Shown here: positions 7,238 through 13,032 of the stretch, piece by piece
Position numbering within the stretch: position 1 is the first letter of the stretch
How the letters are laid out: every line of letters begins with the position of its first letter
Assembly: GCA_963667175.2 (NCBI GenBank)
Contig: CAXXXF010000004.1
Coordinates: 64,001-128,000 of the forward strand
Direction of reading: 5' to 3'
DNA: 64,000 nucleotides
Source of the DNA: Candidatus Latescibacterota bacterium
GTDB taxonomy: Bacteria; Latescibacterota; UBA2968; GCA-2709665
Notes under the pieces: model-generated
What the model was told of the DNA's origin: nothing
What the model saw: the letters and a program-made list of their open reading frames with translations, nothing else
The model's database searches: none
Translations under genes and position numbers: made by a program

Positions 7238-7286
7238 AGGGACGCGTTACCCGGTTGTGGCTGGAGATCTGAAAGGAGACGTTGAA

Positions 7287-8165
7287 ATGACGCTGAGGCA
7301 CGATGCGGAGCAGAACGTCTGGCACTTTGAGACGGAGCAGATGATAGGACACATTCAGCCGGACGGAGACCGGCACGGGATCAAGGAATTGACCCACAAA
7401 CCCACCGGGGCTCAGGTGGCGCACCCGAAGTACGACCTCCTGAATCTGTTTTTCATGTTTTCGCAGAATCACTGCATGGGGCAGGCCCGGGAAAACGCGC
7501 GCAGCATCACGTCCGGGGGTAATGCGATCGACGTGCGCTGGACGCCGACGGACGATCACAAGGCGGAGATGACGGCCAGGTACGAAGTTGTCGAACCCAA
7601 TGCGGTGGACCTGTCCATTACCGTGAAGTCCAACTGGCCCTACCCGGCGTACGAAGTGTTCCTGTCGAACTATTTCGATCTGTCGCTGCGGCCGTACGTT
7701 TACGTTCAGGGGAGCCCGTTCGATATTCCCGCGGACCGCGCGCGGTGGATCGCGCCGGAGGTGAACGACGTCTTCGTGGGAACGGGCCTGGTCTTCTCGA
7801 GGGACCAGCACGCAGCCAGGCGGTCGACCGACGGGCGATGGGACCGGATCTGGGGCCTCTATCAGTGGAACCCGCAACGGTATTTCGAGGCGCCCGTGAT
7901 CATGAGCGCGAACCTGGAGAAAGGCGTTGCGGGGGTGCTGATGTCGCGTCCCCAGGACTGCTACGCGGTGATCAGCGGGTACGCGAGCGAGAACATGAAG
8001 GACCCGTTCAGGGACCAGAACCCCCTCTACCTCTCGCTCTTCGGGGACGATTTCCGCGTTGGCGACGAGCGGACCGTGGAGGTCCGGTTCGCCGTCACCG
8101 AAATCGACGACTCGCTGTCCCAACCACTGGCGCTATACGAAGCGTTCATCGCGGAGAAAGGGTAA
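7287..8165 (+). CDS. Hypothetical beta-sandwich protein
   Basis: AAGGAG RBS; ORF is co-oriented with the upstream cluster. Confidence 0.6.
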   Translation: MTLRHDAEQNVWHFETEQMIGHIQPDGDRHGIKELTHKPTGAQVAHPKYDLLNLFFMFSQNHCMGQARENARSITSGGNAIDVRWTPTDDHKAEMTARYEVVEPNAVDLSITVKSNWPYPAYEVFLSNYFDLSLRPYVYVQGSPFDIPADRARWIAPEVNDVFVGTGLVFSRDQHAARRSTDGRWDRIWGLYQWNPQRYFEAPVIMSANLEKGVAGVLMSRPQDCYAVISGYASENMKDPFRDQNPLYLSLFGDDFRVGDERTVEVRFAVTEIDDSLSQPLALYEAFIAEKG

Positions 8166-8344
8166 GTGCGGGCGTGTACTGGCGGCCAAGATCCGGAGCC
8201 TGGCAAAGCGGGAGTGCGCCTTTCATTCGACAACAGACTCGCAGGGGAAGTCGTCTAACTCGACACTGACATGTAGGGCTGGTGCTGAAAGTAAGGCGCC
8301 GCGAACTCTCGAGGCCGTTGATGAGCAGGGAACATCCAGATGAC

Positions 8345-8410
8345 TGATTTTCATCAAAGCAAAATAATTGTCAAAAAGCAATTGATTTTCAAATGAGCAA
8401 TGACTATATT
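8345..8410 (+). promoter_or_regulatory. Sigma70-like promoter with two operator-like repeats
   Basis: TTGATT (8382-8387), 17 nt, TATATT (8405-8410). TGATTTTCA-N4-AGCAA occurs at 8345-8362 and 8383-8400. Confidence 0.55.
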
Positions 8411-8449
8411 TCTACTACAAACAACAACCATCTACCAAAGGAGAGAGAA

Positions 8450-8719
8450 ATGACTGCTAAAGACACCGTAGCAGAGGACATTCGGCTCAAGACCGTTACC
8501 ATTGAAGTCAACGACCACAAGGTCGAGATGCATGCAGGACCAGCGACGGGATTTGAGATCAAAGAGGCCGCCATCAAGCAGGGCGTAAGTATTCAGCTGA
8601 ACTTCGTGCTGCAGGTCCAGTTGCCGAATGGATCGAGCAAGGTGATCGGCAACGACGACAAGGTGCCATTGACCGAACATCTCGCCTTCACCGCCATCGC
8701 TGCGGATGATAACAGTTGA
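8450..8719 (+). CDS. Multiubiquitin-family ubiquitin-like protein (BubA-like)
   Basis: AAGGAG RBS. Beta-grasp pattern VTIEVND...TGFEIKEAA...IGNDDKVPL...F. First gene of an E2/E1 operon; ends ADDNS. Confidence 0.8.
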   Translation: MTAKDTVAEDIRLKTVTIEVNDHKVEMHAGPATGFEIKEAAIKQGVSIQLNFVLQVQLPNGSSKVIGNDDKVPLTEHLAFTAIAADDNS

Positions 8720-8740
8720 CCGTAACAGTAAGGACGCACC

Positions 8741-9127
8741 GTGAAGCAGGATGTCGCTAACGCGATCGAGGAACTGAAGCGGGCACTTCCGTCTTCGGAT
8801 GTGCGCAGTAGCGAGGACGGAAGTGGGGGTGCATACGTTGTCGTCGAACCCGTCCACATAGGGGAACGATATAGGCCTTCATCTACATGGATAGGGGGCC
8901 ACATCACGGCCCTCTATCCGTACGCCGACATCTACCCTCTGTTTATCGGCGACAACGTGTGTCGCGTGGACGGCGTGGCCTTTGAGCCGCCAGTAACTGC
9001 CGGCGCTCAGTTTTTCGACCGGCCGGCCCTGCAGGTTTCTCGGCGCAACAATCATACTCAGAACTACCCTCAGGCGGCGGTGGCCAAATTCCTCAAAGTA
9101 CTGCATTTCCTTAAGGAACTCCAATGA
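8741..9127 (+). CDS. Prokaryotic E2/UBC-like protein (BubB-like)
   Basis: YPYADIYP and LQVSRR motifs; lies between the Ubl and JAB-E1 genes; ATGA overlap with the next gene. Confidence 0.7.
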   Translation: MKQDVANAIEELKRALPSSDVRSSEDGSGGAYVVVEPVHIGERYRPSSTWIGGHITALYPYADIYPLFIGDNVCRVDGVAFEPPVTAGAQFFDRPALQVSRRNNHTQNYPQAAVAKFLKVLHFLKELQ

Positions 9128-10491
9128 AACGGGAGTCGTGCGACATCCTGGTGACTTCCGAGTATCACCAGCGAATCATGGAGCATCTGTTTCCCGGCGA
9201 CCGCGACGAGTACGGTGCGATTCTGCGCGCTGGCGTCGTTCGCAACGGGTCGACTATGCGCCTGCTGATTCAACATGTTCAGCCAGCGGAGTTTGGTACC
9301 GACTACGTCGCGGGCCAATACGGCTACCGGGCGCTTACTCCAACTTTCATTCACAGAGAAATCCTCCAGTGCAGAGACTTGGGCTTAGCCTACCTTGCTG
9401 TTCACAATCACGGAAGCGGCCGGAGGGTTGATTTCAGCAGCGTCGATATAGAATCCCACGAACGCGGTTATCCCGCACTCCTAGACATTGGCCGTGGGGT
9501 TCCGGTTGGCGCTTTGGTGTACGGTCGGCGCTCGGTCGCCGCAGATATCTGGCTGCCGGATGGCAGCCGTCGATCGCTCGGGACCTATCAGATCATCGGT
9601 GACAAGATTACGAGGCTTTACACCAAACCCCGCCGAGTGCGTGGGTCGAACAGCGAGCACGATCGCCAAGTGCGCATGTTCGGTGCGGCTGGACAACAGA
9701 TCCTGAAAGTGAGCAAGGTGGCTGTCGTTGGGCTCGGAGGGGTCGGTTCGCTAGTGGCGGAATACCTTGCTAGACTTGGGGTTGGGAACCTCGTACTCAT
9801 CGATCCGGACGAAATTGAGAAAAGCAACCTTTCTCGCGTGGTTGGCGCGACCCCGGTTGACGTCGAAATGGGCCAGCTCAAGACACAGATCGCGGTTCGT
9901 CATGCACGCGAGATGGCGGTTGATGCCACGCTTCAGCCGGTCGCGGCCGACGTTTCGCGTCAGTCCGTCGCCCGAGTTCTGCGCGATTGTGACTTCATAT
10001 TCCTGGCCGCAGACTCCATGCGAGCTAGGCTCGTCGTCAATGCTCTTGCCCACCAGTACCTCATTCCGACGATTCAATTGGGCGCAAAGATACGTCCAGG
10101 GCATCGTGGCAAGCTCGAAGATGCCATGTGTGCGGTACGACATATCAGGCCAGGCACCGGATGCCTTTGGTGCAATGAACTGATTGATCCGATGCAACTC
10201 GCGGTCGAAGCGAAGTCTGACAGGGAACGCACGGAACAGGCTTACGGAGTTCAGGAAGCCAACCCTAGCGTGATCACGTTGAACGCTGTCGCGGCCGCAC
10301 ATGCGGTCAATGATTTCCTATTTGACTTCCTGGGGCTCCGATCCGGTGAAGTGGAAGCAGGTTATCAGCACATCCATTTTCATCGTGGCAAGTTACAACG
10401 TGTTATTCCGCGTCGCGATCCGGAATGCAGGGAATGTGTCCACAGACTAGCCATGGGTGACGCGCTCGAACTTCCGGTAATGGAGGGATAA
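9124..10491 (+). CDS. JAB-like domain fused to ThiF/E1 adenylyltransferase (BubCD-like)
   Basis: JAB-like signature E...HNH-x7-S-x2-D. E1 motifs GLGGVGS and DPDEIEKSNLSR, with Zn pairs CLWC and CREC. Confidence 0.88.
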   Translation: MKRESCDILVTSEYHQRIMEHLFPGDRDEYGAILRAGVVRNGSTMRLLIQHVQPAEFGTDYVAGQYGYRALTPTFIHREILQCRDLGLAYLAVHNHGSGRRVDFSSVDIESHERGYPALLDIGRGVPVGALVYGRRSVAADIWLPDGSRRSLGTYQIIGDKITRLYTKPRRVRGSNSEHDRQVRMFGAAGQQILKVSKVAVVGLGGVGSLVAEYLARLGVGNLVLIDPDEIEKSNLSRVVGATPVDVEMGQLKTQIAVRHAREMAVDATLQPVAADVSRQSVARVLRDCDFIFLAADSMRARLVVNALAHQYLIPTIQLGAKIRPGHRGKLEDAMCAVRHIRPGTGCLWCNELIDPMQLAVEAKSDRERTEQAYGVQEANPSVITLNAVAAAHAVNDFLFDFLGLRSGEVEAGYQHIHFHRGKLQRVIPRRDPECRECVHRLAMGDALELPVMEG

Positions 10492-10585
10492 CGTGGTATC
10501 GAAGATGCTTGGCAGGTCGTGGCGGATTGGATAAGTCGAGAGTGTTGTAACCCCATTCGGCTACCGACCACAAGGGATACAGCCA

Positions 10586-10945
10586 ATGACTCAGCGTCTG
10601 AACTTCGACTTTGAAGCCTTCTACAGGGCACTAAGCACGACCGTGACGGCTCGAGAAGTCAGTTGGAAAGCTGTAAGCGAGCAGACTGGCGTCTCTCAGT
10701 CCACGTTGTCCAGGATGTCGAAGGGGCGGCAACCGGATGCCGCCAGCCTGACGGCGCTGTGCGCATGGTCGGGCCTCAACCCCGTGGATTTCACGACGGC
10801 GCCGAAGAACAACCCTGAACCCGTTGCCACGGTAACTAGGCTGCTCCGTGCAGACCCGAACCTCAATAAGGACGGCGCGGATGCGTTAGAGGCCATCATC
10901 ACGGCGGCCTACGAAAGGCTTAAACGGCCGTCGTCAGATCTCTAA
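10586..10945 (+). CDS. XRE-family HTH regulator (CapH-like)
   Basis: HTH segment SWKAVSEQTGVSQSTLSRM followed by a C-terminal helical extension. Confidence 0.8.
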   Translation: MTQRLNFDFEAFYRALSTTVTAREVSWKAVSEQTGVSQSTLSRMSKGRQPDAASLTALCAWSGLNPVDFTTAPKNNPEPVATVTRLLRADPNLNKDGADALEAIITAAYERLKRPSSDL

Positions 10946-11142
10946 TCTTGCTTGTCCTTGTCCGCCTGAGACGGCTTTGATGCGGCAATTCGCAGTTCGG
11001 CAGCCAATTCCTCACGCTCTCGGATGCTCTTAGCGATTTCCGGGACGGCTTGTTCCATCTCTTGGCGCAAGTCATCGAGCATGGCTTGGTCCTCCGTTGC
11101 CGGGCTGAATTTCCCCAAGTATTCCTTGAACTTTTGGTTCAT
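10942..11142 (-). CDS. Small helical hypothetical protein
   Basis: GGAGG RBS inside the upstream gene; ATGA overlap with 11139..12662. Confidence 0.65.
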   Translation of the reverse strand: MNQKFKEYLGKFSPATEDQAMLDDLRQEMEQAVPEIAKSIREREELAAELRIAASKPSQADKDKQD

Positions 11143-12662
11143 TCCTCTCCTCCAGTTTCTGCGGCTACTTCGCTCGTACTCGTGGATGCCGGTGATTCGT
11201 GGACCGGACGAAGATTGAGCTCGATCCGTGGTAGAGGTCCGAGGTTTGTGCGACTGAGGCGGATGGATGTGGGTTTCATCTCTGCCGACGTCCGATCGAA
11301 GACGTGCGCCACTTCCTCATCATGTAACAACCAGATCGGTACTTTGTCCGTTGGACTCGCGGTAGCGTCTACGATCGCCCTTGCGGCAACGTGCCCGGCT
11401 TGCCATTGCGCGACGCTGCAGTACTCGACAACCCACACGAATTTAGCCGTGTCTAAATGCATCAATAGACCGACGAGGCCGTCGCCGAGATTCGTGCGGT
11501 AGTTGCGTGCATGCTCACGAAGATTGGAGACCGTCGTGATGAAATAACGCCGTAACTCGAGCGGCTCCTGATCTGGTCCGCGCGCACGTCCCAAGGATCC
11601 CTCGACTCGTTGGCTCAAGGCGTCTATAGCATCGGCGGGGTAGAAGATTTTGTCAGGCAATGCAACGATGAACGCCTCGAACGAGTCGGCGGAATACGAC
11701 GTCTGTCCGGCTTGGGTTCCGTGCAAGTTTAGCGGAACGGTAGCATAGGGAAGTAGGTTGTCGTCCACGGTCAGCAGTGTTTCAACTTGCGTCCAGACAT
11801 GCGATAAAGAAGCCTGCTGTGGTATTGCGGTTTGCTTCCAATTGTGGCCGACGATGACTACGGCGTGGGTCTCGCTGGGCATGGCAACGAACAACGGGAA
11901 ACCCGATTCCAGATAGGCAAGCAACTGGGAGAAAAACGCCGCGTCGGAAGCGGAATTACGCTTGCCGACGAGCAACGGGAAACAGCCAGCCGCCTGAAAT
12001 ACACGTTCAGCTTCCAAGACATTGAAGCCAAGTGACGGCACCAATCCGCCAGGGTCGAACGGGGCGACGAGCTTTGTTACGTCGTGGACGAGATACTCAC
12101 GATGTCGCGAATATGTCTCGCTGTAATATCGAAGAACAGCCCAGCAAGCCACATGGGCGCACACTGCAATGTCAACATGCTGGGCCATCGAGGGGAACCC
12201 CCATACGGGTAATCGATGACCAAGCAGGTTGACGTGGTGAACTGACTGAATTGCCCTACCACGCGCGCCTAACCGAATGTCGGGAGAGAGCACGGATCGC
12301 CCTAACGTGGCGACGATAGTCGGCCTTAACACGATGTATCCGAAGTAATGGTCTTGCGGGTGGCCGTCATTAGCCACGATATCGGCCAGATCTTCGTCAT
12401 ACCTAACCGTTCCGTCGAAGAAGTGCAGACGGACACAATCTGGGCGGTACTGCCGGCCCTTCTTAGCATAGAAATTATAGAACGTGCTACGATAATCCTT
12501 GTCGACGTATCCGTGCTCGACAAGCAATCCCTTGACAGCGTCTGTTACCTGAGTTTTGAGACGCTGGGCGATGTCCTTGGGATCGAATTCCGGTTCTATC
12601 ACGTCGATAAGACGGTCGTACTTCTTGGGGGAGTCGAGATCGATCCAATCGTAGGAAGCCAA
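11139..12662 (-). CDS. Papain-like (C39-like) cysteine peptidase-fold protein
   Basis: Q-x6-C (QHVDIAVCAH), THAVVIVGH and TVDDN match the order of a Cys-His-Asp triad. Confidence 0.65.
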   Translation of the reverse strand: MASYDWIDLDSPKKYDRLIDVIEPEFDPKDIAQRLKTQVTDAVKGLLVEHGYVDKDYRSTFYNFYAKKGRQYRPDCVRLHFFDGTVRYDEDLADIVANDGHPQDHYFGYIVLRPTIVATLGRSVLSPDIRLGARGRAIQSVHHVNLLGHRLPVWGFPSMAQHVDIAVCAHVACWAVLRYYSETYSRHREYLVHDVTKLVAPFDPGGLVPSLGFNVLEAERVFQAAGCFPLLVGKRNSASDAAFFSQLLAYLESGFPLFVAMPSETHAVVIVGHNWKQTAIPQQASLSHVWTQVETLLTVDDNLLPYATVPLNLHGTQAGQTSYSADSFEAFIVALPDKIFYPADAIDALSQRVEGSLGRARGPDQEPLELRRYFITTVSNLREHARNYRTNLGDGLVGLLMHLDTAKFVWVVEYCSVAQWQAGHVAARAIVDATASPTDKVPIWLLHDEEVAHVFDRTSAEMKPTSIRLSRTNLGPLPRIELNLRPVHESPASTSTSEVAAETGGEE

Positions 12663-13032
12663 TGTGATTATTCCCCGTCTGCTGTTTCGCCCGAGAAAGA
12701 GACCGTCACCTGGTTCTCATAGTTTAAAACCCCACGAAATCGGCGGCATGGACCGAAAACTCCGAATCCGGCGCGCGGTTTCTTCTGGCATGGCGCCTGC
12801 TGGGACACCAAGTCGATGAGGCACTGCTCGCTTTCCTCGACATACCACCTGGAGGTACCCGGCCGCGTCCGCTGTTACAGTGTGGTGCGATCTTTTTCAG
12901 ACGACAATATTGAACGCGCGGGGAATGGAATGCCCCCATAATAGGTTGGAGCAGGAGATAATGCAACCGAGCACTTGACTGAGGCCGCTCCGCGAAGCTC
13001 CCGGAAACACTGCGCCTGTTCACCCATTAATT

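Follow-up and report, generated by a model that had tools for sequence, protein, structure and literature searches.

Can an E1 enzyme activate a ubiquitin-like protein that ends in serine instead of glycine? The question is raised by a short gene in the stretch of DNA analysed here (the window), 64,000 nucleotides from a Candidatus Latescibacterota bacterium (assembly GCA_963667175.2, contig CAXXXF010000004.1, positions 64,001 to 128,000 of the forward strand). The gene encodes a ubiquitin-like protein (Ubl) with the C-terminal residues AADDNS, and is followed by genes for an E2-like protein and for a fusion of a JAB peptidase domain with an E1 (ThiF-type) adenylation domain. To our knowledge, ubiquitin, Ubls and carriers of the ThiS/MoaD type are almost universally taken to need a C-terminal Gly. 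Here we suggest that the three genes encode a Bub-like ('6E'-type) conjugation pathway whose E1 activates the C-terminal Ser of the Ubl, an answer that we consider probable, though well short of certain. The reactive Ubl end in this clade would be the small residue of an acidic tail, [D/E][D/E]-x-[S/A]-COOH, which is DDNS in the window.

The Ubl gene and its C-terminus

8450-8719, plus strand: Ubl gene, 89 amino acids, single Multi_ubiq beta-grasp domain, ending in AADDNS and TGA (from translation, Pfam, homologues and alignment)
8705-8716, plus strand: tail codons D86-D87-N88-S89, with the stop codon at 8717-8719

The Ubl open reading frame (8450-8719) has an ATG start, an aaggagag ribosome-binding site before the start and a TGA stop, and its translation is a protein of 89 amino acids with the C-terminus ...HLAFTAIAADDNS. 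The 89-residue start is supported by the lengths of the homologues, as 117 of 121 sequences (the window Ubl and the 120 homologues listed) have this same length. Residues 16-84 match the Pfam family Multi_ubiq (PF14452; E 5.8e-7; 30.1 bits against a cut-off of 24.5). Since the match ends at residue 84, the six residues AADDNS stand after the last strand, and the Ubl is thus a single beta-grasp domain plus a six-residue tail. The tail is comparable to LRLRGG of ubiquitin, which also stands after the last strand. The final Gly of the window Ubl is G67, 22 residues short of the C-terminus, and the protein offers no C-terminal Gly or Gly-Gly, either native or exposed by trimming, in which it differs from the canonical E1-activated Ubls and sulfur carriers (ubiquitin, ThiS, MoaD, SAMP and BilA). 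The original prediction, made from the DNA letters alone, had reported both the AADDNS-stop end and the distance to the last Gly, and the translation of the reading frame bears it out.

When we searched the PDB with the window Ubl sequence alone, no match was obtained at E<=10, and the Ubl family profile gave a weak match to 9cd2, the multi-ubiquitin protein that is Type II BubA (E 0.0049). PADLOC gave no match for the Ubl, the E2-like protein or the 507-residue protein described below, and the NCBIfam scan of the window proteins returned nothing specific.

Conservation of the tail across the family

The serine-ended tail was found conserved in three sets of sequences. First, a homologue search restricted to proteins of similar length gave 352 matches, 120 of which were listed and read. 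All 120 carry the tail DDNS, as AADDNS or APDDNS in all but one. Second, a search of genome contigs with the window JAB-E1 protein gave 24 loci, which span Latescibacterota, Gemmatimonadota, Acidobacteriota, Spirochaetia, Chloroflexota, Gammaproteobacteria, Verrucomicrobiia and Actinomycetes, and the gene order Ubl, E2, JAB-E1 is kept in 23 of them. At these 23 loci the Ubl tail is DDNS in 22 and DDDS in one, and it persists at loci where the Ubl is 36-47% identical to the window copy. D86, D87 and S89 are invariant in a 15-sequence Ubl alignment with a mean column identity of 59%, and N88 is at least 90% conserved; in these alignments no other part of the protein is as well conserved as the tail. 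The stop codon that follows the tail is TGA at 9 of the 23 loci, TAG at 12 and TAA at 2, and at 13 the E2 match is out of frame with the Ubl.

Third, we performed a profile search with the Ubl family against 1.84 billion cluster representatives, and obtained 555 representatives at E<=1e-3 and 402 at E<=1e-10. The best 150 were inspected; in 140 the domain reaches the profile end, and the other 10 are fragments or partial matches. The last tail residue of the 140 scorable representatives is Ser in 138 and Ala in 2, and none has Gly. The whole tail is DDNS in 114 and takes forms such as DDHS, DDKS, DDSS, DDTS, DDNA and EEDS in the others, and the penultimate residue is mostly N but also H, K, S, T, D, V or A. 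These variants indicate that the constants of the tail are two acidic residues and a small last residue.

The position of the tail within longer proteins is also regular. While 121 of the 140 representatives stop exactly at the tail, 16 run on by 2-9 residues and three are Ubl-E2 fusions with 129-139 further residues, the junction lying directly after DDNS or DEAS. In the multi-domain proteins inspected (P0123, P0124, P0126, P0136 and L018, each with two or three domains), the tail occurs in the last domain only. This combination of extensions, fusions and a tail confined to the last domain is, as judged from the sequences, the layout of ubiquitin-type precursors.

Based on these observations from homologues, loci and the 140 representatives, the non-Gly end can be regarded as a conserved and selected feature of a large family. 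The original prediction had staked its case on close homologues not ending in Gly, and all 120 listed end in DDNS; the proposed check of whether DDNS-stop is kept in intact operons likewise came out in its favour, with DDNS at 22 of the 23 loci and DDDS at the other. Two proteins met in these searches are recorded separately. P0122, the sole match in a search for longer, fused Ubl homologues, was rejected as a frame-shifted chimera. Protein P0208 (5172 amino acids) contains 13 partial Ubl-profile matches (profile positions 33-68), and may be a giant repeat protein with Multi_ubiq-like segments.

The JAB-E1 fusion and the E2-like protein are related to Bub proteins

8741-9127, plus strand: E2-like gene, GTG start, 128 amino acids, BubB-like UBC fold (from an AlphaFold2 model, Foldseek and conservation)
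9124-9633, plus strand: JAB/JAMM peptidase domain of the JAB-E1 fusion, about residues 1-170 (from alignment to Citrobacter BubCD, beginning at residue 8)
9634-10491, plus strand: E1 (ThiF-type) adenylation domain of the JAB-E1 fusion (from Pfam ThiF, PDB 9ea4 and conservation)

The JAB-E1 gene (9124-10491) encodes 455 amino acids with a Pfam ThiF domain (E 5.6e-40), and residues 8-400 match Citrobacter BubCD (PDB 9ea4) with an E-value of 2.7e-31. In this alignment E29, H94, H96, D108, R238 and Y374 are paired with E28, H91, H93, D104, R227 and Y370 of BubCD. The JAB site (E29, H94, H96, S105 and D108) is invariant in 16 of 16 sequences, namely the window and 15 of the 23 loci, and the same is true in the E1 domain of the Gly loop (G203, G205, G206 and G208), D227, R238, K253, D297 and the crossover-loop Y374. 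The combination that marks Bub systems, a JAB-E1 fusion with an intact JAMM site, the adenylation residues and an invariant crossover-loop Tyr, is therefore present. The E1 domain also contains two invariant CxxC pairs, C347/C350 and C435/C438, which are probably a structural Zn site, presumably similar to that of MoeB/ThiF. Among the PDB sequence relatives of the E1 domain are MccB (E 1.7e-10) and PaaA (E 2.1e-8), with MccB ranked far below BubCD and also below MoeB and ThiF. For E1, PADLOC returned only the generic 'E1-E2' models of the cyclic-oligonucleotide-based antiphage signalling system (CBASS).

The AlphaFold2 model of the E2-like protein has a predicted local distance difference test score (pLDDT) of 88.7, and its top Foldseek match is Citrobacter BubB (9eae_C; E 2.9e-4, TM-score 0.73), followed by eukaryotic UBC enzymes. 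The residues kept in all of 17 sequences are D63, R75, G78, Q98, S100, R101, K116 and K119, with no Cys or His among them, so that this is an E2 of the BubB or Prok-E2_E type in which an invariant Ser replaces the catalytic Cys. Counted from the cleavage site, not by residue-level superposition, S100 and D63 would correspond to S333 and D299 of BubB. Prok-E2_E (PF14462) is matched by 6 of the 17 family members, at best with E 2.5e-5, and a PDB sequence search with the window E2 alone gave no match at E<=10. Multi_ubiq and Prok-E2_E were reportedly defined by Burroughs, Iyer and Aravind in 2011. The window copies of the Ubl and E2 genes lie in one reading frame with only TGA-CCG-TAA-CAG-TAA between them; the E2 gene possesses a start codon of its own and an aagga motif of Shine-Dalgarno type.

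By homology, the system is a variant of the Bub kind that is expected to work like Type I Bub, and three of its proteins are homologous to Bub proteins. The original prediction had missed this relationship, which is evident from the BubCD and BubB matches given above, and its suggestion of undescribed chemistry was too strong, since the expected acyl-adenylate, E1 and E2 intermediates and isopeptide product are those of the published Bub pathway. Novelty would lie in the residue at the Ubl terminus and in the composition of the system.

Modelled docking of the tail on E1

In order to place the tail relative to the E1 active site, as the original prediction had proposed, we modelled the Ubl together with ATP, Mg and a dimer of the E1 domain (residues 170-455). 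The interface score ipSAE was 0.84, against 0.24 for the best of three controls; contacts agreed between runs to at least 91%, and the partner reached a pLDDT of 86 or more. On the Ubl side the contacts are made by residues 81 and 83-89, and on the E1 side by residues 203 and 205-208 (the Gly loop), 295-297 (including D297), 319-324, 351-355 and 380-382. The model thus places residues 83-89 against the Gly-rich loop and D297, and supports presentation of the tail to E1 for adenylation.

Proposed mechanism

Based on these observations, we propose that the E1 domain would bind the beta-grasp domain, thread the tail to the ATP site and adenylate the carboxylate of Ser89. The acyl group would then pass from the crossover-loop Tyr374 to Ser100 of E2 and on to a target amine, a route that we infer by homology with the oxyester route of Citrobacter Bub. 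JAB would cut after Ser in relatives with extensions or E2 fusions, and would probably reverse conjugates where no trimming is needed, as in the window. This second role is proposed because the JAB site is invariant although 121 of the 140 Ubls need no trimming, and, at this locus, because BubE/DUF6527 is missing; in known Bub operons, conjugate removal is the role assigned to BubE, a serine protease (bioRxiv 10.1101/2024.11.21.623953). Citrobacter offers a parallel to the precursor layout: there, BubAB is cut by the JAB of BubCD immediately behind its junction Gly, as described by Ye, Gong, Chambers and Corbett (bioRxiv 10.1101/2024.11.21.623953), and the reactive end of the Bub Ubl is the conserved C-terminal Gly G229 (same source).

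Extended to all relatives, the proposal is that a large and horizontally mobile Bub-like clade (at least 402 clusters at 50% identity) natively activates and conjugates its Ubl through [D/E][D/E]-x-Ser-COOH, that JAB cuts the precursors after Ser, and that a new Cys/His protein stands in BubE's place; we lean only slightly towards this wider form. As for the claim of the original prediction that a non-Gly terminus is activated, the conserved Ser end, the invariant E1, E2 and JAB residues, the precursor layout and the docking all favour it, and activation itself stays a prediction from sequence and model.

Here, we need to consider several points that weigh against activation of the terminal Ser. 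First, a CBASS Cap2 substrate whose terminal Gly was replaced by Ser no longer formed the thioester or the conjugate, whereas Ala in its place was accepted (Jenson et al., PMC10097602), indicating that Ser is not generally tolerated by E1-like enzymes. Second, 'all Bub operons possess bubE' (Ye et al., bioRxiv 10.1101/2024.11.21.623953), and the operon here lacks it: no BubE/DUF6527 (PF20137) match was found in the window genome (95% complete), and in five other genomes with the operon DUF6527 is absent in three and lies more than 1 Mb from the operon in two. Third, the enzymes depart from the Bub pattern. BubCD has no Cys opposite C347/C350, and its alignment ends before C435/C438, so a Cys thioester step at these CxxC pairs is possible. 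Near its Ser, the E2 carries S100-R101 where Type I Bub E2s have a His and those of Type II a His/Lys pattern. Pfam gives no JAB match for the window JAB-E1, and no Pfam match for the window E2. Fourth, the JAB-E1 protein itself ends in Gly in 16 and in Ala in 3 of 24 sequences, counted over the window (10471-10491, ...ELPVMEG) and loci L001-L023, and this C-terminus could be a cis-acting tail or a self-substrate. Finally, the E1-Ubl model gives contacts, not chemistry, and its good score may owe much to the likeness with solved E1-Ubl complexes; in the calibration of the scoring, 58 of the 80 solved complexes reach the ipSAE mark, as do 2 of the 110 mismatched pairs, counts that are only rough here as user-supplied alignments and small molecules went into the prediction.

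Alternative explanations

The alternative that survives best, which we still consider unlikely, is that the Ubl modifies nothing covalently. Its acidic DDNS tail would then act as a non-covalent plug or recognition element, regulating the enzymes for example from the ATP/Mg site of E1 or the Zn site of JAB, or as an adaptor surface, and the enzymes would act on something else or on nothing. The lack of a terminal Gly fits this explanation, as do two near-terminal acidic residues that could bind metal, the block of E1-type activation by the Gly-to-Ser change in CBASS (PMC10097602) and the early description of the 6e E2-like domain as inactive (Iyer et al. 2006, PMC1779556, Table row 6e). It leaves unexplained why the JAB site, the E1 residues (Gly loop, R238, D297 and Y374) and S100 of E2 should be invariant over 16-17 diverse members. 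That precursors and fusions join exactly after the tail is hard to explain without a need for a free carboxylate, and the related Bub system is a proven conjugation pathway (bioRxiv 10.1101/2024.11.21.623953).

We consider it quite improbable that the tail is remodelled before or during activation, through loss of Ser89 or a rearrangement of the Asn-Ser bond that would leave Asn or Asp as the reactive end, for example in an MccB-like or succinimide route. A terminal Asn is the residue that MccB adenylates, and succinimides form readily at Asn-Ser. Conservation of N88 in the 15-sequence alignment, the presence of MccB and PaaA among the PDB relatives of the E1 domain and the two peptidase candidates encoded at the locus (JAB and the 507-residue protein) would suit such a route. 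However, what stays constant over the 140 representatives is the small terminal residue and not Asn, and MccB stands low in the PDB ranking, behind BubCD, MoeB and ThiF. The suggestion in the original prediction that Asn or Asp is exposed by trimming is unlikely on the same count, since the penultimate residue varies while the last is Ser in 138 and Ala in 2.

More doubtful still is that the true substrate of E1 is another polypeptide, with the JAB-E1 C-terminus (...ELPVMEG) as the candidate and the Ubl as a cofactor. Its frequent Gly or Ala end recalls CBASS, in which Cap2 acts on a non-Ubl protein ending in Gly or Ala (PMC10097602). The end is lost in L010 (D) and in the distant L019-L022 (R, H, T and I), all of which keep the DDNS Ubl tail, and we therefore regard the JAB-E1 C-terminus as a weak alternative substrate; in addition, it is the Ubl that docks on E1 in the model with its tail in the active site. 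An artefact (local mutation, sequencing error, broken BubAB fusion, read-through or recoded stop), at which the shared frame and short spacer of Ubl and E2 in the window might hint, is refuted by the non-Gly DDNS-type end at 120 of 120 listed homologues and 23 of 23 loci and by the E2's own start codon and aagga motif, while the use of three stop codons and the different E2 frame at 13 of 23 loci exclude read-through, TGA read as Gly and a broken BubAB fusion.

Comparison with known systems

We then compared the proposed Ser-activating system with those already described. Type I Bub (6E.1; Citrobacter BubAB, BubCD and BubE; PDB 9ea4 and 9eae) shares with it a Multi_ubiq-type Ubl, an E2 of the Prok-E2_E or BubB fold with Ser at the catalytic position, and a JAB-E1 fusion of equal length and domain order that has the crossover-loop Tyr and an intact JAMM site. 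An association with an HTH (helix-turn-helix) regulator and signs of horizontal mobility are also common to both, and a Ubl-E2 fusion occurs in rare relatives of the present family. The differences are as follows. The Type I tail ends in Gly, whereas here it is [D/E][D/E]x[S/A]; the Ubl and E2 of Type I are fused as BubAB and released by JAB, whereas they are separate genes at 23 of 23 loci; the present Ubl is a single beta-grasp domain; the present E2 has S-R-R, without a His two residues after the Ser; the present E1 keeps its CxxC pairs; and BubE/DUF6527 is absent from the window genome, with a 507-residue Cys/His-motif protein present. Type II Bub (6E.2; E. coli ZDHYS365 BubA, BubBD and BubE) likewise has a free-standing Multi_ubiq Ubl, and its published chemistry uses Ser on E2 and Tyr on E1. 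It differs in its E2-E1 fusion, the lack of a JAB and the presence of BubE, where the present system has a JAB-E1 fusion, a lone E2 and no BubE. Since three Bub or Type I features are missing here, namely BubE, the Gly end and the Ubl-E2 fusion (3 of 140 representatives are fused), we do not file the system under either published Bub type.

The more distant systems share parts of this logic. The Bil (ISG15-like) systems and the eukaryotic ubiquitin and Ubl cascades also combine a beta-grasp modifier, an E1, an E2 and a JAB that trims or deconjugates. In CBASS type II, the E1-like enzyme of the Cap2/Cap3 pair takes a terminus other than Gly-Gly (Gly or Ala, PMC10097602) and has a JAB partner, but its substrate is an enzyme (the CD-NTase C-terminus) and not a Ubl, and terminal Ser abolished conjugation. 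Cap2 is moreover an E2-E1 fusion using Cys. MccB and PaaA, adenylating E1-like enzymes from the field of peptide antibiotics, have the ThiF-fold adenylation domain and are PDB relatives of the present E1. They act on a non-Gly C-terminal or acidic residue. They have no beta-grasp substrate, E2 or JAB, however, and are far more distant in sequence than BubCD.

We found no description of a Ser-ended Ubl clade in the literature, a search that left the supplementary Bub operon tables uncovered, so that a prior mention is possible. The relevant Bub literature that it returned consists of two preprints of 2024 from the Corbett laboratory. The accessible part of Iyer et al. 2006 (PMC1779556) holds nothing on the Ubl tail, and the only natural relaxation of the Gly rule that we found in the literature is Gly or Ala in CBASS substrates, with Ser not tolerated there (PMC10097602). 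If activation of the terminal Ser is true, this would be the first class of E1-activated Ubl with a reactive end that is neither Gly nor Ala, and in effect a third Bub type with its own tail code. It would mean that E1 enzymes can evolve a different tail code, and would offer a natural system for how the adenylation pocket selects the terminal residue; an orthogonal pair of tag and ligase could serve protein engineering. The Bub field would gain a BubE-less type, with the 507-residue family flagged as a likely new partner.

Regulator, 507-residue protein and genomic setting

8382-8410, plus strand: sigma-70-like promoter match 5' of the Ubl gene (weak, from consensus only)
10586-10945, plus strand: XRE/Cro-type HTH regulator, 119 amino acids, found with the operon at 20 of 23 loci
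11139-12662, minus strand: protein of 507 amino acids (X507), no known family, convergent with the HTH gene, linked at 16 of 23 loci

The promoter match is TTGATT-17-TATATT, with 9 of 12 consensus positions, and the scan of the region gave 5 sites against 2.0 +/- 1.3 in shuffled sequence.

X507 is always convergent with the HTH gene. The seven loci without it comprise two that reach a contig end and the five most distant loci. At L013 and L016-L018, the HTH and X507 pair sits upstream of the Ubl gene in the opposite orientation, so that the pair travels as a module. The mean column identity of X507 over 11 sequences is 65%, and the invariant motifs are Q161..C168..C173-W174, H266-A-V and D301-N302, which we take to resemble a papain-fold Cys peptidase. 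X507 has no Pfam, NCBIfam or PADLOC match; when Pfam was run on each member, Peptidase_C39_2 appeared in 2 of the 11, at E 0.19 only. The AlphaFold2 model of X507 is poor (pLDDT 59.6), and Foldseek with this model gave no match at E<=0.001. Josephin-2 with ubiquitin stood at rank 3 of that fold search (E 0.21), as a lead only, and the ESM Atlas returned hypothetical clusters, with a lead in 11% of one cluster. X507 could act as a further peptidase, control the HTH protein or serve as an effector. At the actinomycete locus L023, the neighbouring genes show no further conserved partner.

The cassette lies within window positions 8000-13000, where G+C is 0.53-0.60 against 0.60-0.66 upstream, and the operon proteins are 80-91% identical in metagenome-assembled genomes labelled as different phyla. 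The low G+C stretch together with this cross-phylum identity suggests a recent horizontal transfer of the cassette. A defence or stress role of the operon is suggested only by analogy, the cross-phylum identity and the low G+C. The sequencing runs listed for the cassette DNA are sponge metagenomes, and no RNA run was listed. Just upstream, at 7257-8165 on the plus strand, lies an open reading frame of 302 amino acids with no Pfam family, about 91% identical in L001 and L002 only, which represents conserved flanking DNA or a piece of a larger shared island.

Operons with DUF6527

Some further loci carry DUF6527. L024 (3614-7624) is a distant Bub operon with DUF6527, and its JAB-E1 is 28% identical to that of the window. 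It comprises an HTH gene and a Peptidase_M78 gene (a CapH/CapP-like pair), Prok-E2_E, JAB-E1 and DUF6527. Its putative Ubl is a separate gene of 184 amino acids without a Pfam match, and ends in ...TTQVS, that is, in Ser and not Gly; from this one case, non-Gly Ubl ends may also occur in operons of the BubE type. L028 (3019-6608), found as a second locus in the genome of L005, appears to be a Bub-like operon in its own right, with an M78 peptidase, an HTH gene, Ubl, E2, JAB-E1 and DUF6527. Its Ubl frame reads ...RQINPG and then continues for 24 more residues in a frame other than that of E2, and a frameshift or an overlap is possible at this Ubl/E2 junction. L027 is another DUF6527 locus, from a genome that also carries the DDNS operon.

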